A stretch of 64,000 nucleotides of DNA from Minisyncoccota bacterium (GTDB lineage Bacteria; Patescibacteriota; Minisyncoccia; UBA6257; JAGOQP01), in contig JBAZTS010000003.1 in assembly GCA_041661795.1 (NCBI GenBank), positions 3,939 through 67,938 of the forward strand. The letters are read 5' to 3'. The position numbers were made by a program, and so were the translations under genes. The notes under the pieces were generated by a model. It saw only the letters and a program-made list of their open reading frames with translations, ran no database searches and was not told where the DNA came from. Shown piece after piece: positions 19,357 through 35,776 of the stretch; the stretch's first letter is position 1; the number at the start of each line of letters is the position of its first letter.

Positions 19357-19914
19357 TTATTTAATATTTTTTGACCTTAATAATATTTTTTGATTTTTGT
19401 CCAAATCAATGTAAACATCAGCCACTTCTTTTAACTTGGCCGAAGTGCTTCTTCCAAAAGAAACCACCTCAACTTGTCGTCCAAGTCCCCATTTTAAGTA
19501 TTCGACCAAAGGACAAAAGTCGCCATCTCCAGTGACAAGGACAATAACGTCTAAAAACGACGCCATTCTAACGGCATCTACCGCCATACCAACATCCCAG
19601 TCGGCTTTTTTGGCTCCACCGGCAAAAATTTGTAAATCTTTAATTCGTAAGTCCATTCCTCCTTTTTCCAAAGCGTCAAAAAAAGTCGCCTCCGGAGTTT
19701 TTGGGGCGAACCTCGCTCCTTCGGAGCGGGCGCTTTCACCTAAAGAAGTGTCGCTTTTAACCACATACCCTATGGCTCTTATTAACTGTCTTTGGCCAAC
19801 AATATATTTTAACAACTGACCAAAATTAACCCTGGAACTATAGAGGTGTTTAGCCGAATGGTAGAGGTTCTGTATATCAACAAAAACTCCAACTCTCTGA
19901 TCTTTATATTGCAT
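19357..19914 (-). CDS. NYN/LabA-like (DUF88) domain protein
   Basis: VGVFVDIQNLYH ... VIVLVTGDGDFCPLVEYL: PIN-like NYN motifs. Inserted between rpsO and pnp. Confidence 0.65.
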   Translation of the reverse strand: MQYKDQRVGVFVDIQNLYHSAKHLYSSRVNFGQLLKYIVGQRQLIRAIGYVVKSDTSLGESARSEGARFAPKTPEATFFDALEKGGMDLRIKDLQIFAGGAKKADWDVGMAVDAVRMASFLDVIVLVTGDGDFCPLVEYLKWGLGRQVEVVSFGRSTSAKLKEVADVYIDLDKNQKILLRSKNIK

Positions 19915-19915
19915 T

Positions 19916-20182
19916 TTATTTCTTTAACCCCAGTTTTTTTACCACCTTGGCATATGATTTCTCGTCGTTTTTAGCTAAGTAGTCCAAAAGCTTTCTCCTT
20001 TTGGAAACCATCTTCAAAAGGCCCCTTCTGGAAGAATTATCCTTTAAATGACCCTTAAGGTGTTTTGCTAATTCGTCAATCTGTTTTGTTAAAAGTCCAA
20101 CCTGAACCTGGGCCGAACCAGTATCACCATCGTGAACCTGAACTTCTTTTATAACATTTTGTTTTTTTCGTATAGTAAGCAT
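19916..20182 (-). CDS. rpsO: 30S ribosomal protein S15 (start moved to the internal Met, MLTIRKK)
   Basis: 88 aa from the internal Met matches the S15 consensus: HDGDTGSAQVQVGLLT, SRRGLLKMVSKRRKLLDYL. Classic rpsO-pnp neighbourhood. Confidence 0.9.
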   Translation of the reverse strand: MLTIRKKQNVIKEVQVHDGDTGSAQVQVGLLTKQIDELAKHLKGHLKDNSSRRGLLKMVSKRRKLLDYLAKNDEKSYAKVVKKLGLKK

Positions 20183-20229
20183 CAGAGCAATAATACACGA
20201 TTTTTTTGTAATAGTCAATTACTGCCTTT

Positions 20230-20320
20230 CAGAAAAGATTTTGGGACGCGGGTATTTTTCTACTAAAAAATCCCTCTAGTTCAGCCCATCGGCTTCCGCA
20301 TGGTCCCAAAACCTTTTCTG
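20230..20320 (-). promoter_or_regulatory. Imperfect 18-bp inverted repeat with 55-nt spacer in the rpsO 5' leader / xerC divergent region
   Basis: CAGAAAAGATTTTGGGAC (20230-20247) pairs with GTCCCAAAACCTTTTCTG (20303-20320), one mismatch. Confidence 0.4.
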
Positions 20321-20374
20321 AAAATAATAACCAAAACTGTTTTCTAGTGTCGCAAAATAATATATACTAACGTC

Positions 20375-21286
20375 ATGACTGAAATTCAAAAATACGAAAA
20401 AGATTATTTAGATTATCTGGAAATAGAAAAAAACAGGTCGCCAAAAACCATAGAAAACTACAGGCGCTATCTTGATGAGTTTATAAAAGATGAAAAACTG
20501 AAATATTTAAAAGATTTAACCGTAGAAAGCGTCAAAAACTTTCGGCTCTTTTTGTCCAGAAAAGAAAGCGGACAAGATGGGTTTATTAAAAAAAATACCC
20601 AAAGCTATTATGTTATAGCTATTAGAAATTTTCTTAAGTATTTGGCCAGAAACAAAATAAAAACCGAAATATTATCCGAACAAATCGACCTTCCTAAAGT
20701 TTCCCAAAGACAGATAGAAATAATAGAATACGCCGATTTGGAAAGATTTTTAAAGGGTCCGGATGGAAATTCTCTAAAATCCCTTAGAGATAAAGCAATT
20801 TTGGAAACTCTTTTTTCTACCGGACTTCGTGTTTCAGAACTCTGTTCTCTTTCACGATATATTGATTTAAAAAGAGAGGAGATAACGGTTAGAGGAAAGG
20901 GGGATAAATTAAGAGTGGTTTTCCTTTCTCAAAGAGCCAAAGAGGCAATTGAAAAGTATTTAAACAAAAGAGGTGACGCCGACCAAGCGATGTTTGTTAG
21001 TTTAACTAAATCTAAAAATCCAAAGGTTATAGGAAAAATTTTACCAAGAACAGTTCAGCGTCTAGTAAAATTTTATGCCAAAAAAGCGGGAATCTTAGGA
21101 AAAGTAACACCCCATCAACTGCGTCATCAGTTTGCCACGGATCTTTTAATGAACGGGGCCGACATCCGCTCAGTGCAAGCGCTTTTGGGACACGCCAATA
21201 TTTCCACAACTCAAATTTACACTCACGTAACTAATAAAGAGTTAAAAGAAATCCACCACACCTTCCATGCCCGCAGGAGAAAATAA
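20375..21286 (+). CDS. xerC: Tyrosine recombinase XerC/XerD family
   Basis: N-terminal SAM-like core-binding domain. Catalytic region HQLRHQFATDLL ... LLGHANISTTQIYTHV. 303 aa. Confidence 0.8.
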   Translation: MTEIQKYEKDYLDYLEIEKNRSPKTIENYRRYLDEFIKDEKLKYLKDLTVESVKNFRLFLSRKESGQDGFIKKNTQSYYVIAIRNFLKYLARNKIKTEILSEQIDLPKVSQRQIEIIEYADLERFLKGPDGNSLKSLRDKAILETLFSTGLRVSELCSLSRYIDLKREEITVRGKGDKLRVVFLSQRAKEAIEKYLNKRGDADQAMFVSLTKSKNPKVIGKILPRTVQRLVKFYAKKAGILGKVTPHQLRHQFATDLLMNGADIRSVQALLGHANISTTQIYTHVTNKELKEIHHTFHARRRK

Positions 21287-21350
21287 TCGATAAAAATAAA
21301 TACGAATAGAAAAGATGGAGTTAAATAACAAATTTATATAGCAGTGTTTA

Positions 21351-21388
21351 CCTCTCTTATCGGCCGATCGTTCAATAAGAGAGATTAA
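21351..21388. repeat. 38-bp GC-cored hairpin repeat, copy 1
   Basis: CCTCTCTTATCGGCCGATCGTTCAATAAGAGAGATTAA: 9-bp stem CTCTCTTAT/ATAAGAGAG around the CGGCCGATCG loop. Repeated at 22053-22090. Confidence 0.75.
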
Positions 21389-21442
21389 AAACTAGAGTTA
21401 AAAACACAAGCCAAACATAAACCAAAAAGATAAGAATTAGAA

Positions 21443-22021
21443 CTAGGAGATTTGCTCCAAACTCCCGTGTTTGGTTATCTCAAATATTTCCACATAACTC
21501 AACATTTTTAGTCCCCTCAGGTCGTCCAGGAATTCTTCTGGTAATTTTGTTTTTCCTATCCAAACACTTTTTTGGATTAAATTAAAATCAAGATTTTTCA
21601 ATACTACCGACAACCATTTTCTTTTTTTCCTCTCTGCCTCCGGAACATCAAAAGCGACCACAGTTACTCTGTTATTTGGAGGTCCCTTTTTATATTTAGT
21701 TACGGGCAAAGAGATTTTTAATTTTATTCTTAATTTCCCCAACAAGATTTTACCCTTATTGGTTAATCTTAATTTGTCCCGATTTTTACTCTCTATCAAC
21801 CCGTCCCTTTTTAATCTATAAACCAAGTTATAAAATTTTTGCTTTTCTCCTTTTACAGCTTCCGCTTCGGCTTTTTTTGACAAAGTTTTATAATACGCTC
21901 TATCCATATCAGACAAAGAAGCTCCGTAACCAGCCTCAAGAAATGACTCTATTAAAAGTCCTACTGCCGTTACGCCGTTCTTTATTAACTCCAAAGCCTG
22001 TAACATTTTGTCCTCTTTCAT
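21443..22021 (-). CDS. wHTH regulator with C-terminal Cas2/VapD-like domain (PaaX-like architecture)
   Basis: N-terminal winged helix (YNLVYRLKRDGLIES). C-terminal VVAFDVPEAERKKRKWLSVVLKNLDFNLIQKSVWIG resembles the Cas2 core. No CRISPR array present. Confidence 0.4.
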   Translation of the reverse strand: MKEDKMLQALELIKNGVTAVGLLIESFLEAGYGASLSDMDRAYYKTLSKKAEAEAVKGEKQKFYNLVYRLKRDGLIESKNRDKLRLTNKGKILLGKLRIKLKISLPVTKYKKGPPNNRVTVVAFDVPEAERKKRKWLSVVLKNLDFNLIQKSVWIGKTKLPEEFLDDLRGLKMLSYVEIFEITKHGSLEQIS

Positions 22022-22052
22022 ATTTATTACTATTACATTTTTGTTACATTAT

Positions 22053-22090
22053 ACTCTTTTATCGGCCGATCGTCCAATAAGAGAGATTAA
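22053..22090. repeat. 38-bp GC-cored hairpin repeat, copy 2
   Basis: ACTCTTTTATCGGCCGATCGTCCAATAAGAGAGATTAA. Three mismatches to copy 1, same orientation. Confidence 0.75.
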
Positions 22091-22145
22091 GTTATAAGCA
22101 ATGGAATTGAAATTAAAGTCGGGTATTTTCCAAACAAAAATTTAG

Positions 22146-22226
22146 TGGGCAGGGAGGGACTTGAACCCTCAAACCTTGCGGCACTAGCTCCTAAAGCTAG
22201 CGTGTTTACCATTTCACCACCTGCCC
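22146..22226 (-). tRNA. tRNA-Leu (anticodon UAG)
   Basis: Cloverleaf folds on the minus strand: acceptor GGGCAGG/CCTGCCC, anticodon stem CTAGC/GCTAG with loop TTTAGGA, long variable arm, T-arm GAGGG-TTCAAGT-CCCTC. CCA is not encoded. Confidence 0.85.
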
Positions 22227-22306
22227 AGTAGTACTATAGTATTTTAAAATACGGATTTTTTCAATAATAAGAGAAAAAACACTAATAAAATAGCCATTGT
22301 TCCCTA

Positions 22307-22335
22307 TTTACAAACTCTTTGTAATATGCTATTAT
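22307..22335 (+). promoter_or_regulatory. Sigma-70-like promoter TTTACA-N17-TATTAT reading into the GC-rich island
   Basis: Followed by two leader hairpins, CGCCTTTGGAAAAGGCG (22365-22381) and ACCCCCACACCAAT-TCT-ATTGGTGTGGGGGT (22388-22418), before the ATG at 22491. Confidence 0.45.
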
Positions 22336-22490
22336 ATAGGGTAGAACTTATCAAACAACTTTCTCGCCTTTGGAAAAGGCGTGGGATTTACCCCCACACC
22401 AATTCTATTGGTGTGGGGGTTTATAGGGTGCTTTAAATGCAGTTAACAACAACTATCCCCGATTCTAATCGGGGAGGAAGGAAGTGGAAG

Positions 22491-23525
22491 ATGTCGACTT
22501 TGTTGTCCACACTGTTATTTGGTCTGGCTGGAGTGGCATTCCTGCTGTTTGTGGGAATCGCCATCTTCGTCAACGGCTGGAGAAAAGTTCCACCGTATCC
22601 GTTCATGGTCGCGAGGAAGAAGTTTAACCGCTTTATCGAGACGATGACGAACGATACAACAACAGGAGGATCAACTACGCCACGTTTCATTCTGAAGCCA
22701 GGAGGAGACCAGTTGTTTATCCTCTATCCGTGGTTCCAGAGTGGTGTGGTGGTGGATTGCTCTGACAAGAACTTCGACGGATCAGTGGACGGAGTCAGGG
22801 CTCTCAAGAAGACCGCAGAGGGAAAGTATGAGGTTGGATTCGATCTCTCCATTCCCTACGAGATCACGGTCTTCATCGACTCCAAGCGATTCGACAAGTT
22901 CGTCGAAGCATGTGGAGGCATCGAAGGGGACAATGTGACTGATGGACATTTTAAGAAGGTCGAGAAGATCCTCAACGGAATCATCACCGAACAGATGGTT
23001 TCCATCGCCGCGTCCATGAAGTCCACCACTCCAAAACCGGACGGGACAACAGACGAGGGAGTGATCTGGGAGGATTTCTACAAGCGCATCGCTGATATCG
23101 CCGACCAACTCATCCGACAGATCGCAGCCGCTGAGGCGGAAGGCGGCCTTGTGCACGACAGCGAAATCCAGAGCGTCCGGAGTGGCAAGGGGAAACTCCC
23201 GTTGAAGCGACTTGGCATCAAGATCAAGCGCTTCAATTTACAAGAACCCAAGCTTCCCAAGAGCATTTCAGACGCAATAGCAAAGAGGGAAGCCGAGGAG
23301 CGAGAGAAGGACGCGGAGAAGACAGAAATGGACGGAGTGATAGACCGAATCAACGACGCCAAGACAAAGACCGGTCTCTCGCCCGAACGCGCTATGGATC
23401 TTGTTCAGAGTGAGCGTGGCAAGGCACGGCGCATCGTTCACACCATCGATCAACAAGGAAAATCAAGTGGGAGTGGGTCAACTCCCGTCATTGTGATTCA
23501 AGAAACAACCGGAAAGGGGGAGTAA
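22491..23525 (+). CDS. SPFH/band-7 (flotillin-like) membrane protein
   Basis: Strong SD GGAGGAAGG before the ATG at 22491. N-terminal TM, SPFH-like core (ILKPGGDQLFILYPWFQSGVVVDCSD ... YEVGFDLSIPYEI), then a Glu/Ala-rich coiled-coil tail (AKREAEEREKDAEK). Confidence 0.5.
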   Translation: MSTLLSTLLFGLAGVAFLLFVGIAIFVNGWRKVPPYPFMVARKKFNRFIETMTNDTTTGGSTTPRFILKPGGDQLFILYPWFQSGVVVDCSDKNFDGSVDGVRALKKTAEGKYEVGFDLSIPYEITVFIDSKRFDKFVEACGGIEGDNVTDGHFKKVEKILNGIITEQMVSIAASMKSTTPKPDGTTDEGVIWEDFYKRIADIADQLIRQIAAAEAEGGLVHDSEIQSVRSGKGKLPLKRLGIKIKRFNLQEPKLPKSISDAIAKREAEEREKDAEKTEMDGVIDRINDAKTKTGLSPERAMDLVQSERGKARRIVHTIDQQGKSSGSGSTPVIVIQETTGKGE

Positions 23526-23526
23526 C

Positions 23527-24003
23527 ATGCCAAACAAGGACTCTCTCGAGAAAGCGTCTCCTCCTTGGACACCAAGAGCCAGAGGATGTTTTCTTTTCAT
23601 TTTCTTGTTTCTGACTGTCGTTGCCATCGCCGTCGTCTCATTCTGGCCCGAAGGCAACGGCGCCAAGACCGTCGAGGCGGTCAGGCAGATCCCAGTGGTC
23701 GCGGAGATCAGTCTGGGACAAACTAAACAAGTCGCAATCCAGCCTGGACACGTAGTAGCAGTTCGCTTCGTTCTCAACCCCGGCGAACCGCCCGGTGAGT
23801 GGGGTTACCGATGGCTTGAGAGAGAGGAAGGGTTGTGCGCAAGTGTGACCCTTTCCTCGGGTTTGGTGCCCCCATTTGTGGATTGCGCCAAGCCCATCAC
23901 CATCGTGCCCCTACCCAAAATCAGGACGACCACCCAAATGATCGTCCACAACACCAGTGAGAAAACAGCCAAACTGGAGTTCTTCCTGACAAGGCCGATT
24001 TAG
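23527..24003 (+). CDS. Small membrane-anchored protein, possible NfeD-like partner of the SPFH protein
   Basis: Single TM (CFLFIFLFLTVVAIAVVSFW) and a beta-rich soluble domain. Coupled to the upstream gene with a 1-bp gap. High GC. Confidence 0.35.
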   Translation: MPNKDSLEKASPPWTPRARGCFLFIFLFLTVVAIAVVSFWPEGNGAKTVEAVRQIPVVAEISLGQTKQVAIQPGHVVAVRFVLNPGEPPGEWGYRWLEREEGLCASVTLSSGLVPPFVDCAKPITIVPLPKIRTTTQMIVHNTSEKTAKLEFFLTRPI

Positions 24004-24084: not shown

Positions 24085-24483
24085 TTATAAGAGGCCTCCA
24101 GTTCCTTTATTAAGAGATCCTTCAACAAATTTAACAATTCCCCAAGAGAGCAAAGCAACAACTATACCGATAACGGCATAGAGAAGCATACTCTTGGCTT
24201 TTTTGACTTTGGTGTCATCTCCACTGCTGGTAATAAAGTAGAAAGCGGCGATAAGAATAAACAGGACAGCGACTATAAACAGAATTGTATAGACCCACTG
24301 AACTATTTTAGTAAATATCGCTACCGCTCCACTAACAGTTGTTGGAGCTCCCGGATTGTTCACTATATTACAGGGAAGTGCTCCTGGCTGTCCACACGGA
24401 ATCGGAGCCGCAGAAACTAAAGAAGTACTCAAAATCCCAAATAAAGCCAACAAAAGAAGAGAGGAAATTAATTTTTTTGACAT
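24085..24483 (-). CDS. TrbC/VirB2-type T4SS pilin, paralog 1
   Basis: Signal peptide, Cys-containing variable region, then conserved core VQWVYTILFIVAVLFILIAAFYF...KVKKAKSMLLYAVIGIVVAL (two TM helices separated by a short basic loop). Confidence 0.6.
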   Translation of the reverse strand: MSKKLISSLLLLALFGILSTSLVSAAPIPCGQPGALPCNIVNNPGAPTTVSGAVAIFTKIVQWVYTILFIVAVLFILIAAFYFITSSGDDTKVKKAKSMLLYAVIGIVVALLSWGIVKFVEGSLNKGTGGLL

Positions 24484-24544
24484 AATTTATTTTCAATTTT
24501 TACGACCTTTTTACTTTAAATAATTATAACAAATTATTTTAAAA

Positions 24545-24979
24545 TTAGTAGTTACCACCAGATCTCAAGAAGTTGTCTATAATAATAGGAATACCGGCTC
24601 CTAAAATTGCAACAACAATAGCAATAACGGCATATTTTAATTGAGCTCTGGCAATTTTGACTTTAGCGTCATTACTCCCCCCTTGAATAAAGTTATAAGC
24701 GGAAAGCAATATAAAGAGAACAGCAACAATAAAGAATATAGTGTAAATCCAACGAATAATTCCAAAAACAACTTGCTTAGCAGACCAACTTCCGCCCGGC
24801 TGAGCACTCACACTATTAAGACCGGTTATCGGACTTCGTAATTTAGGATCACTCCCAAACGGATTTATAATTTCCTCTCTAGTTGGTGGAGTAGCAACAG
24901 CCGCCAAAACGAAACTATTTATAAAGAAAACATTGATAAACAAAAAGCTTAAAGATACTAAAACAAATTTTTTAATCAT
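24545..24979 (-). CDS. TrbC/VirB2-type T4SS pilin, paralog 2
   Basis: Core IRWIYTIFFIVAVLFILLSAYNF...KVKIARAQLKYAVIAIVVAIL. C-terminal IDNFLRSGGN shared with paralog 3. Confidence 0.6.
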   Translation of the reverse strand: MIKKFVLVSLSFLFINVFFINSFVLAAVATPPTREEIINPFGSDPKLRSPITGLNSVSAQPGGSWSAKQVVFGIIRWIYTIFFIVAVLFILLSAYNFIQGGSNDAKVKIARAQLKYAVIAIVVAILGAGIPIIIDNFLRSGGNY

Positions 24980-24994
24980 TTTTTATTTTTAATT

Positions 24995-25336
24995 TTAATT
25001 TCCCGACCTTAAGAAATTGTCTATAATAGCAGCCACGCCCGTAGAAATTAGAGCTATTACTATAGCAATAACCGCATATTTTAAACGAGCCACTCCTTCT
25101 TTCACTTTCTCTGGCCTACCTTCAGACATCAAAAACGTATAAGCCCCAAGAAGTATGAAAAGAATGGCTAATATGAAAAATATTGTATATGCCCATTTAA
25201 CAGCTTTCAAAAGCAGATTCTGAACACCTTGAAAATCTGTGACTATCGGTTCCAAAACAGGTTGGGCCAATACAGGATAAGATAACAAGGAAAATAAACT
25301 GAGTATTATAATAATGCTAAAAAGTGTTTTTTTCAT
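24995..25336 (-). CDS. TrbC/VirB2-type T4SS pilin, paralog 3
   Basis: Core VKWAYTIFFILAILFILLGAYTF...KVKEGVARLKYAVIAIVIALI...IDNFLRSGN. Confidence 0.6.
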   Translation of the reverse strand: MKKTLFSIIIILSLFSLLSYPVLAQPVLEPIVTDFQGVQNLLLKAVKWAYTIFFILAILFILLGAYTFLMSEGRPEKVKEGVARLKYAVIAIVIALISTGVAAIIDNFLRSGN

Positions 25337-34418: not shown

Positions 34419-34490
34419 GCGCCTGTAGCTCAGTGGTAGAGCGCTACTCTTATAAAGTAGATGTCGTAGGTTCGATCCCTACCAGGCGCA
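34419..34490 (+). tRNA. tRNA-Ile with anticodon UAU (decodes AUA)
   Basis: 72-nt cloverleaf: acceptor GCGCCTG/CAGGCGC, D-arm GCTC-AGTGGTA-GAGC, perfect anticodon stem CTACT/AGTAG with loop CTTATAA (U33, anticodon TAT, A37), T-arm GTAGG-TTCGATC-CCTAC. Confidence 0.7.
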
Positions 34491-34492
34491 CT

Positions 34493-35307: not shown

Positions 35308-35379
35308 GGGCACTTAGCTCAGTGGTAGAGCGACTCGTTTACACCGAGTAGGTCGGGGGTTCAATCCCTCCAGTGCCCA
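35308..35379 (+). tRNA. tRNA-Val (anticodon UAC)
   Basis: 72-nt cloverleaf: acceptor GGGCACT/AGTGCCC, anticodon stem ACTCG/CGAGT with loop TTTACAC, T-arm GGGGG-TTCAATC-CCTCC. Confidence 0.85.
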
Positions 35380-35453
35380 CAAAAAAATCTAACGGGGCAA
35401 GCGCAAAAACCCCATGTTTGAGCCCTGGTGCGCCCACCATGCGCGGGACATCG

Positions 35454-35508
35454 AGGAGGTCATAGGTTTCCGCCAGAGGCGGATCCGCCTCTGGCGGACA
35501 ATCCTCCA
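35454..35508. repeat. Long hairpin with a perfect 28-bp GC-rich palindrome centred on GGATCC
   Basis: CCGCCAGAGGCGGATCCGCCTCTGGCGG (35470-35497), flanked by GAGGAGG...CCTCC. The 20-mer GGCGGATCCGCCTCTGGCGG is identical to 32194-32213 inside rpsA. Confidence 0.8.
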
Positions 35509-35636: not shown

Positions 35637-35776
35637 TGTTTCACGTGAAACAATTTTTTTATTTTAAAGTGGCAAAGATGTGGCAATTCCATTTCCACTT
35701 GGTTTCCACTTTACCACCACACTAATAGTATTAGTGTGGTGGTTTATTTCCACTTTACAATGTTTCACGTGAAACA
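35637..35776. promoter_or_regulatory. Two copies of the perfect 16-bp palindrome TGTTTCACGTGAAACA flanking a TTTCCACTT repeat cluster and a 29-bp hairpin
   Basis: Palindromes at 35637-35652 and 35761-35776. TTTCCACTT at 35693-35701, 35703-35711 and 35747-35755. Hairpin CCACCACACTAATAGTATTAGTGTGGTGG at 35714-35742. TATAAT at 35794-35799 precedes the yraN ATG. Confidence 0.6.

Follow-up and report, generated by a model that had tools for sequence, protein, structure and literature searches.

In E. coli and Pseudomonas, the repressor PaaX (PDB 8A39, 3L09) responds to phenylacetyl-CoA and is built from a winged helix at the N-terminus and, after it, a dimerisation domain with a Cas2-like fold (PF20803). 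For the E. coli protein the operator reads TGATTC-N27-GAATCA; at Px, its own promoter, PaaX acts as a repressor by sterically excluding RNA polymerase (PMC9493321). We analysed a stretch of 64,000 nucleotides from a Minisyncoccota bacterium (GCA_041661795.1, contig JBAZTS010000003.1, positions 3,939 to 67,938; the whole stretch is referred to as the window), in which a single 192-aa gene lies between two near-identical palindromic repeats. The gene product is predicted to be a short PaaX-like DNA-binding protein with a Cas2 fold. Covariation between the protein and the repeats makes it highly probable that the two repeats are its binding sites. The unit is probably a self-controlling regulator, and not a recombination module or part of a CRISPR system.

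Genes placed between sites for their own product are familiar from other settings. Lambda CI, whose OR and OL flank cI-rexAB, 186 CI with its flanking sites, and the loops formed by LacI and GalR all use auxiliary operators, and cooperative looping between the high-affinity sites on either side of the repressor gene sharpens autoregulation in these systems. RAYT (REP-associated tyrosine) transposase genes are flanked by REP/REPIN (repetitive extragenic) palindromes that are recognised by their own product.

The bracketed gene and its protein family

The initial annotation of the window, made from the sequence without database searches, had drawn attention to two near-identical 38-bp elements in the same orientation that flank the 192-aa gene, each with a 9-bp stem around a GC-rich core. 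Both observations were confirmed. The elements (21351-21388 and 22053-22090) are direct repeats of 38 nt with three mismatches, and alignment of 21352-21388 with 22054-22090 gave identity at 35 of 37 positions. Each copy is an imperfect palindrome of 32 bp, in which outer arms of 9 bp (CTCTCTTAT and ATAAGAGAG, with one G.T position in the second copy) are separated by 4-nt unpaired spacers from a central CGATCG (21365-21370 and 22067-22072). The GC-rich core of each copy reads CGGCCGATCG, in a window of 36% GC. The unit comprises the following features:

21443-22021, minus strand: 192-aa gene with a winged helix and a Cas2-fold (PaaX_M) domain, assigned from the open reading frame, PF20803, the AlphaFold2 model and Foldseek
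22054-22090 (palindrome proper 22054-22085): P-up, the upstream palindromic site and proposed autoregulatory operator, centred 48 bp before the ATG
21352-21388 (palindrome proper 21352-21383): P-down, the downstream palindromic site and proposed second binding site, centred about 75 bp past the stop codon

An alternative start of the gene at M6 would give a protein of 187 aa. P-down is located between the convergent 3' ends of the 192-aa gene and the tyrosine recombinase gene xerC. A degenerate 34-mer, searched with up to three mismatches, found only the two copies in the window (zero expected from 100 shuffles), and no third copy of the palindrome was detected there even at 13 mismatches of 37; the 38-mer is not the common terminator motif that had been considered at the outset. 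Every 20-mer of the window occurs at most twice, which leaves no CRISPR array, as had been stated. No second member of the protein family is encoded in the window. Metagenome contigs gave no match in an exact-pattern scan for the window's palindrome, and none in a scan for close relatives of the 192-aa protein.

The C-terminus of the protein had been likened to the Cas2/VapD fold, fused to an N-terminal winged helix, and both assignments agree with our results. PF20803 (PaaX_M, 'PaaX central Cas2-like domain') matched residues 120-186 well above its cutoff (E value 2.3e-12; 47.3 bits, cutoff 24), and the Cas2 models stayed under theirs (PF09827, 21.0 vs 23.8; TIGR01573, 16.1 vs 24.5). All 31 aligned homologues matched PaaX_M, and none of the 31 matched the PaaX_C or PaaX N-terminal models; the protein stops at residue 192, a few residues beyond the Cas2-like domain. 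An AlphaFold2 model built with the 31 homologues had a mean pLDDT (predicted local distance difference test) of 79, with the C-terminal half above 90. This half adopts a beta-alpha-beta-beta-alpha-beta, ferredoxin-like fold in the model, and the N-terminal half shows the three helices and beta-hairpin wing of a winged helix, in line with weak matches to MarR, PadR and DUF4364. Foldseek searches against the PDB returned Cas2 structures as the top matches (2ivy, 5zyf and 3exc; probability 0.9-0.99), followed by VapD (6zi1), and the E. coli PaaX structure (8a39) was the sole match spanning both domains. Sequence searches against the PDB gave only marginal winged-helix matches and none for the Cas2-like part alone. 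Residues invariant among the 31 sequences are concentrated in the Cas2-like part (F124, D125, P127, E128, R134, W136, S152, W154 and G156).

The family is common in, and restricted to, the ultra-small Patescibacteria, with several paralogues per genome. It comprises at least 715 clusters at 50% identity (E value up to 1e-30), and its members are uniform in length at about 190-205 aa. A hypothetical protein recorded for 'Candidatus Paceibacterota bacterium' is identical, and public records list family members as 'CRISPR-associated endonuclease Cas2', 'PaaX', 'PadR family regulator' or 'cell division protein'. Neither genomic context nor family cutoffs support the first of these names, which is in wide use and misleading. 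Defence-system and phage-family libraries gave only weak Cas2 and winged-helix similarity and no toxin or defence model beyond that, no relatives were found on viral contigs, and our literature search found no paper describing the protein family or its palindrome bracket.

The bracket is a trait of the protein family and not of the window locus. We assembled 83 homologous loci, 80 from one-genome-per-species contigs and three from metagenomes, and scanned them with a simple palindrome finder. About 76 of the 83, across Patescibacteria, have a palindrome of about 34-40 bp both before the start and after the stop codon of the family gene. The upstream palindrome is centred at a median of 51 bp before the ATG and the downstream one at a median of 42 bp after the stop, with 599-816 bp between the two centres. 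Of the 126 strong palindromes detected in 575 kb, 87 are no more than 200 bp away from an end of a family gene. With a stricter definition of the site (P-type; a CG-NN-CG core and at least eight of nine arm pairs), 116 sites adjoin family genes and eight occur elsewhere in 584 kb, with none in shuffled sequence. The three closest relatives of the window protein (L001, L002 and L004; 66%, 64% and 47% identical) are found in the same order of xerC, palindrome, gene, palindrome and tRNA-Leu; their palindromes keep the CGATCG centre and have different arms, those of L002 being two identical perfect palindromes of 36 bp.

Paralogues within one genome also carry different arms (for example L022, L033, L035 and L066, or L053, L056 and L060), as cognate specificity predicts. 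Some loci contain additional copies or an altered arrangement. In L005 and L014, a third palindrome copy brackets a neighbouring gene on the opposite strand (L005 4712-5215, L014 3799-4251), located between the second and third copies; its product, of 150-167 aa, has a LexA-like winged helix at the N-terminus, and the gene looks like a second bracketed unit. In L082 (2455-6152), an operon of three minus-strand genes (922, 93 and 92 aa) has the third copy upstream of it and runs as far as the second copy. In L077 (2386-4641), three genes lie between the two copies, namely a cation-efflux-like gene, one of 154 aa and the family gene.

Anatomy of the palindrome and its covariation with the protein

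We aligned all copies of the site on their centres. Symmetry is highest at positions ±1-4 (0.85-1.00), which lie within a core of T.ACGA and TCGT.A on the two sides of the centre that is common to the family, with CG-NN-CG as its invariant part. It is relaxed at ±5-8 (0.59-0.87), the least constrained positions, and rises again in the outer arms at ±9-17 (0.82-0.99). Beyond ±20, symmetry falls to background and no sequence is conserved. The arms of the two copies of one locus are 90-100% identical, as compared with 27-56% between loci. The upstream palindrome of one locus (L064, 37-106) is perfect over 70 bp, against the usual 34-48 bp.

This profile is not that of a hairpin, in which ±1-4 would be the loop and ±5-8 the interior of the stem: the would-be loop has the strongest symmetry and the would-be stem interior the weakest. 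Mismatches of the G.U type are not favoured over those of the A.C type on the sense strand (53 vs 77 in upstream copies, 56 vs 51 in downstream copies). The family profile shows no T-run after the arms, a terminator scan of the window called neither palindrome copy, and an Rfam scan of 19800-22500 with E values up to 1 found only tRNA. Taken together, the symmetry profile, the lack of G.U bias and of a T-run, and the absence of an Rfam match argue for a double-stranded, symmetric protein-binding site and not for an RNA or DNA hairpin.

A mutual-information scan of protein columns against site positions was performed over 72 loci. The top pair linked residue 135 to base -5 of the site, with a mutual information of 1.1 bit and a z score of 11. 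Residue 135 is the x of a K-R-x-W motif in helix alpha1 of the Cas2-like domain, the R and W of which are invariant. Aspartate at this position goes with C in 14 of 18 loci, glycine with G in 7 of 7, glutamate with T in 6 of 7 and histidine with T in 3 of 3. The association holds between distant family members: among proteins less than 35% identical, the base is shared in 67% of pairs with the same residue 135, as opposed to 19% of pairs without, and among 37 representatives less than 50% identical the D-C pairing was found in 5 of 5 (Fisher p 5e-5). The effect of residue 135 is limited to positions -4 to -7. It is present separately in all four half-sites and is equally strong in the downstream copy, suggesting that the encoded protein reads the downstream copy as it does the upstream copy. 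Residues 63, 65, 69, 70 and 87 of the winged helix covary with arm positions -12 to -14.

These observations suggest how the protein might contact its site. A dimer would place its Cas2-fold core on the site centre and one winged helix on each outer arm. The common core, T-N-ACG-NN-CGT-N-A, would then be read by the Cas2-fold domain, and the locus-specific 9-bp arms (±9 to ±17) by the winged helices.

The candidate promoter, the downstream copy and alternative explanations

P-up overlaps a candidate promoter of the 192-aa gene:

22048-22076, minus strand: candidate sigma-70-like promoter, with the -35 box TGGACG at 22076-22071, a 17-nt spacer and the -10 box TATAAT at 22053-22048

The two boxes match the consensus at 10 of 12 positions. 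P-up takes in both the spacer and the -35 box, the latter being the left half of the palindrome core, and a bound protein would therefore exclude RNA polymerase. The same geometry (-35 box at -7 to -2 from the site centre, -10 box starting at +16 to +18) was found in the sense direction in 22 of 78 upstream copies; the controls gave 3 for upstream antisense, 1 for downstream sense and 4 for downstream antisense. P-down has no -10 box, with GTAAAC at the equivalent place, and the idea that the downstream copy serves as the promoter of the next gene was rejected, the geometry being present in 1 of 77 downstream copies. We propose negative autoregulation, in which protein bound at the upstream site would keep RNA polymerase off its own promoter in the manner of PaaX at Px. 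That the upstream site mediates autorepression is likely, and to a similar degree so is the whole model of a PaaX-like autorepressor with two flanking operators. Of the guesses in the initial annotation, a 'repeat-flanked toxin/regulator cassette' came closest, in its regulator part.

Across the family, the downstream copy is as well conserved as the upstream copy. It may take part in a protein-bridged loop around the 0.7-kb gene that would aid occupancy of the promoter site, or act as a roadblock against polymerases arriving from the convergent neighbour; it could also do both. In 35 of 68 loci both flanking genes face the unit, and in 2 of 68 both point away from it, counts that are inflated by shared ancestry. 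Where extra copies exist they bracket neighbouring transcription units. We therefore favour whole transcription units as the level at which the downstream copy acts, and the choice of either the loop or the roadblock as the specific role is a tentative one. No paa genes were found in the window or in the neighbourhoods of the 83 loci.

Several results weigh against the autorepressor model. The covariation between winged helix and arms weakens in the most distant comparisons, and whole-domain (Mantel-type) correlations of divergence are weak, with rho values of 0.10 for the arm versus the N-terminal half and 0.03 for the Cas2-like half, leaving the column-by-column analysis as the informative one. 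The promoter is a consensus match, and only the 22 of 78 upstream copies mentioned above reach the 9-of-12 threshold; L077 has no site at the promoter of the family gene itself. The spacing of the two sites has no preferred helical phase (Rayleigh p >0.2), no oligomerisation domain is evident, and none of the results points to the formation of a tetramer. Hardly any sites exist away from family genes (eight in 584 kb, none in the 64-kb window), so that no regulon wider than self-control emerges from these sites, and a regulator confined to its own control would have no obvious use. The invariant D125, at the end of strand 1, corresponds in position to the catalytic Asp of Cas2, and together with the other invariant residues of the Cas2-like part it may leave room for an enzymatic function.

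The genes on either side of the unit bear on its history. The initial annotation had placed the unit between a tyrosine recombinase gene and the 3' end of a tRNA-Leu gene, and the coordinates of the two genes agree with this:

20375-21286, plus strand: XerC/XerD/XerA-like tyrosine recombinase (xerC), conserved left neighbour of the orthologue group
22145-22226, minus strand: tRNA-Leu(tag), 3' end toward the repeat, conserved right neighbour of the orthologue group

In about 25 loci the neighbours xerC and tRNA-Leu are conserved, and the order xerC(+), gene(+), tRNA-Leu(tag)(-) recurs in about 23 loci other than the window. XerC proteins of these syntenic loci are 57-70% identical in full-length comparisons. 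Other orthologue groups are located after gyrB or before thrS, and about 58 of the 83 family loci have no xerC within 2.5 kb. The neighbours are housekeeping genes in old synteny, which does not fit the context of a mobile element, and the order xerC, gene and tRNA-Leu does not reflect a recent insertion. The family gene is flipped relative to xerC and tRNA-Leu only in the window and in L018, and the two flips represent independent inversions because the nearest relatives of each are unflipped. The palindromic direct repeats double as inverted repeats, being 76% self-complementary in the window, and homologous recombination between them can therefore flip the unit together with its promoter. 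The flip of the whole unit between xerC and tRNA-Leu is explained by the palindromic nature of the sites. Phase-variable inversion was rejected for now: in four assemblies of the organism (the window and L085-L087) the unit points the same way and the repeats are identical, which gives no sign of active switching. A comparison of L002 (1-1116) with the window (21107-22226) gave DNA identities of 96.7% for the 3' end of xerC, 70.7% for the bracketed gene and 69.6% for tRNA-Leu. Similarity falls sharply past the xerC stop codon, either because recombination had its breakpoint at the cassette or because the short metagenome contig is a chimera.

The adjoining recombinase, which scores over the cutoff of the archaeal single-recombinase XerA model (232 vs 220), raises the question of whether the palindromes are Xer/dif-like or other tyrosine-recombinase sites, with the gene as an invertible, excisable or exchangeable cassette comparable to integrative mobile elements exploiting Xer (IMEX) and pdif modules. 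The 6-bp CGATCG centre with its symmetric flanks is reminiscent of an 11-6-11 site, and both the two inversions among the syntenic loci and the sharp drop in identity between xerC and the cassette gene of L002 could be read in this way. However, most family loci lack a nearby xerC and other groups sit beside gyrB or thrS, the arms of paralogues differ within one genome such that one recombinase could not recognise them all, and the site covaries with the encoded protein and not with XerC. Positions ±5-8, where the Xer arms would be expected beside the centre, are the least conserved, the orientation is the same in four independent assemblies, and homologous recombination suffices for inversion between palindromic repeats. 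We therefore regard Xer-type sites as very improbable. As a candidate class, the Xer/dif site, with arms of about 11 bp flanking a centre of 6-8 bp, was rejected on the relaxed ±5-8 positions and the presence of xerC in only about 25 of 83 loci, and the 'recombination module' or 'att-site duplication' of the initial annotation is not supported, given the same layout in about 76 of 83 loci. An integron attC cassette was also rejected, integrase models scoring far below cutoff (118.8 vs 265; 69.6 vs 435) and the same site being present on both sides without attC organisation. Only a slightly better chance is given to nucleic-acid hairpins, whether RNA terminators, stabilisers or RNase III-type processing signals at mRNA ends or extruded DNA cruciforms. 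As minus-strand RNA the downstream copy folds at -19.6 kcal/mol (z -4.6), many family palindromes are perfect over 36-48 bp (70 bp in L064), and the downstream copy occupies a terminator-like place on which flanking genes converge in the 35 of 68 loci noted above. Against this stand the anatomical findings, including the four positions ±5-8, which are unpaired in the window, as well as the missing terminator and Rfam calls; the upstream copy overlaps the promoter and is thus probably untranscribed, and hairpins leave unexplained both the sequence shared by the two copies and the link of residue 135 to base -5. An intrinsic terminator was rejected as a class for the lack of a scan call and a T-run, the stems in the window being AT-rich with a 14-nt unpaired centre.

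It is also possible, with little likelihood in our estimate, that the unit is or was a selfish or mobile cassette. A Cas2-fold nuclease would be aimed by its winged helices at its own palindrome, with the two copies representing a duplicated insertion target, or the protein would be a self-repressed toxin of the VapD/Cas2 type. The fold is like that of the Cas2 and VapD nucleases, D125 and further domain residues are invariant, and the P-gene-P geometry is that of an insertion with target duplication or of a P-bearing circle integrated at a chromosomal P. The rarity of sites off family genes, the several paralogues per genome and the faster divergence of the cassette than of xerC between the window and L002 would also fit. 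On the other hand, synteny is kept across orders in the xerC and gyrB groups, no two loci have identical copies, and no empty site was seen, the metagenome scans for the window's palindrome having returned nothing to inspect. No integrase or cas1 gene accompanies the unit, viral-contig relatives and defence or toxin models beyond weak Cas2 are lacking, and PaaX employs the same fold purely for dimerisation. In the most far-reaching form of this proposal, to which we assign a very low probability, P-gene-P units would be products of target-duplicating insertion or palindrome-mediated rearrangement, and the Cas2-fold domain would read sequence and act catalytically on the CG-NN-CG centre of its own palindrome. 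If true, one Cas2-like protein and two repeats would make up a minimal self-targeting cassette, in which the copying of a palindromic repeat about 36 bp long to both sides of an insert would resemble CRISPR repeat duplication and could bear on the origin of Cas2.

Other features of the window and comparison with known systems

Several features elsewhere in the window were recorded. An SPFH/Band7 gene (362 aa) and the next open reading frame (158 aa), at 22437-24003, have 53% GC against 36% for the window. The Band7 pair also follows tRNA-Leu in relatives such as L004, where it is at native GC (46% vs 44%), which suggests that the pair in the window is a horizontally replaced copy. Beside the Band7 pair, three small tandem genes (24085-25336) have products of 113-144 aa, each with a signal peptide and, at the C-terminus, a membrane helix; the genes are kept together with the pair in relatives, and their counterparts in L003 and L004 match the T4SS_pilin Pfam model. 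A 21-nt inverted repeat, 95% complementary (20227-20247 and 20303-20323, 55 nt apart), lies between rpsO (S15, minus) and xerC (plus) and has no Rfam match. Its probable location is the rpsO leader, where it could serve in the autoregulation of S15. The palindromes ACCCCCACACCAAT.tct.ATTGGTGTGGGGGT at 22390-22420, upstream of the Band7 gene, and ACCACCACACTAATA.g.TATTAGTGTGGTGGT at 35713-35743 have arms that are related to each other, and they may be sites of another regulator or terminators. A perfect palindrome of 30 bp, with TCCGCCAGAGGCGGA and TCCGCCTCTGGCGGA as its halves, occupies 35469-35498, about 90 bp after tRNA-Val (35308-35380). A tRNA-Ile with the anticodon TAT (UAU) is encoded at 34419-34491, and also in L067; this is an uncommon bacterial way of reading AUA.

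The mislabelling of the family as Cas2 can inflate counts of CRISPR components in Patescibacteria. Each family member carries two presumed binding sites, which makes hundreds of protein-site pairs readable from sequence, and a first specificity rule is available, by which the base at ±5 can be told from residue x of K-R-x-W. From the covariation, a Cas2-fold domain seems able to recognise particular bases in double-stranded DNA. To our knowledge, such reading is no known property of Cas2 or VapD and falls outside the textbook picture of Cas2, VapD and PaaX. Operators at both ends of a transcription unit, kept across a whole family in regulator-poor organisms, suggest gene-scale looping or self-insulation against read-through.

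The unit shares single traits with several known systems. With the RAYT genes it has in common a single-copy gene between palindromes that its product would recognise, but the family protein has no HUH/Y1 transposase domain and its palindromes are not dispersed (116 versus 8 sites in 584 kb). Like the Xer modules (IMEX and the pdif modules of Acinetobacter plasmids), the window has one gene between short palindromes with a 6-bp centre beside an Xer-type recombinase, and inversions occur. In contrast to those modules, family sites follow the encoded protein, most loci lack xerC, the arms vary between paralogues and the chromosomal synteny is old and stable. The ferredoxin-like fold and the conserved Asp (D125) at the end of strand 1 are shared with Cas2 and VapD, and databases use the Cas2 name, yet the family scores below the Cas2 cutoffs and joins the domain to a winged helix. 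The window lacks both cas1 and a CRISPR array, and neither cas1 nor another cas-like gene recurs as a neighbour in the 83 loci. The family domain also appears to differ from Cas2 and VapD in reading specific bases of double-stranded DNA. The arrangement of a repressor gene between two sites for its own product is that of lambda CI, 186 CI, LacI and GalR. It differs in that looping in the window unit is a proposal for a protein with no evident oligomerisation domain, and in that the family has two single, near-identical sites in an arrangement kept family-wide and not in one phage switch.

The closest resemblance is to PaaX. Both proteins have an N-terminal winged helix followed by the PF20803 domain. 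Both have long palindromic operators with half-sites far apart (39 bp for PaaX, about 34-40 bp for the family), although the sequences differ. Repression of the own promoter by occlusion of RNA polymerase is documented for PaaX and is proposed for the window protein. Unlike PaaX, the window protein has no PaaX_C (phenylacetyl-CoA-binding) domain and no match to the PaaX N-terminal model, has no paa genes nearby, and belongs to a Patescibacteria-restricted family with several paralogues per genome. The family operator further adds a CG-NN-CG core that covaries with the Cas2-like domain, and almost every family member has a second operator copy past the stop codon. As judged from domains and sites, the unit appears to work most like PaaX while standing outside the PaaX family in the strict sense.

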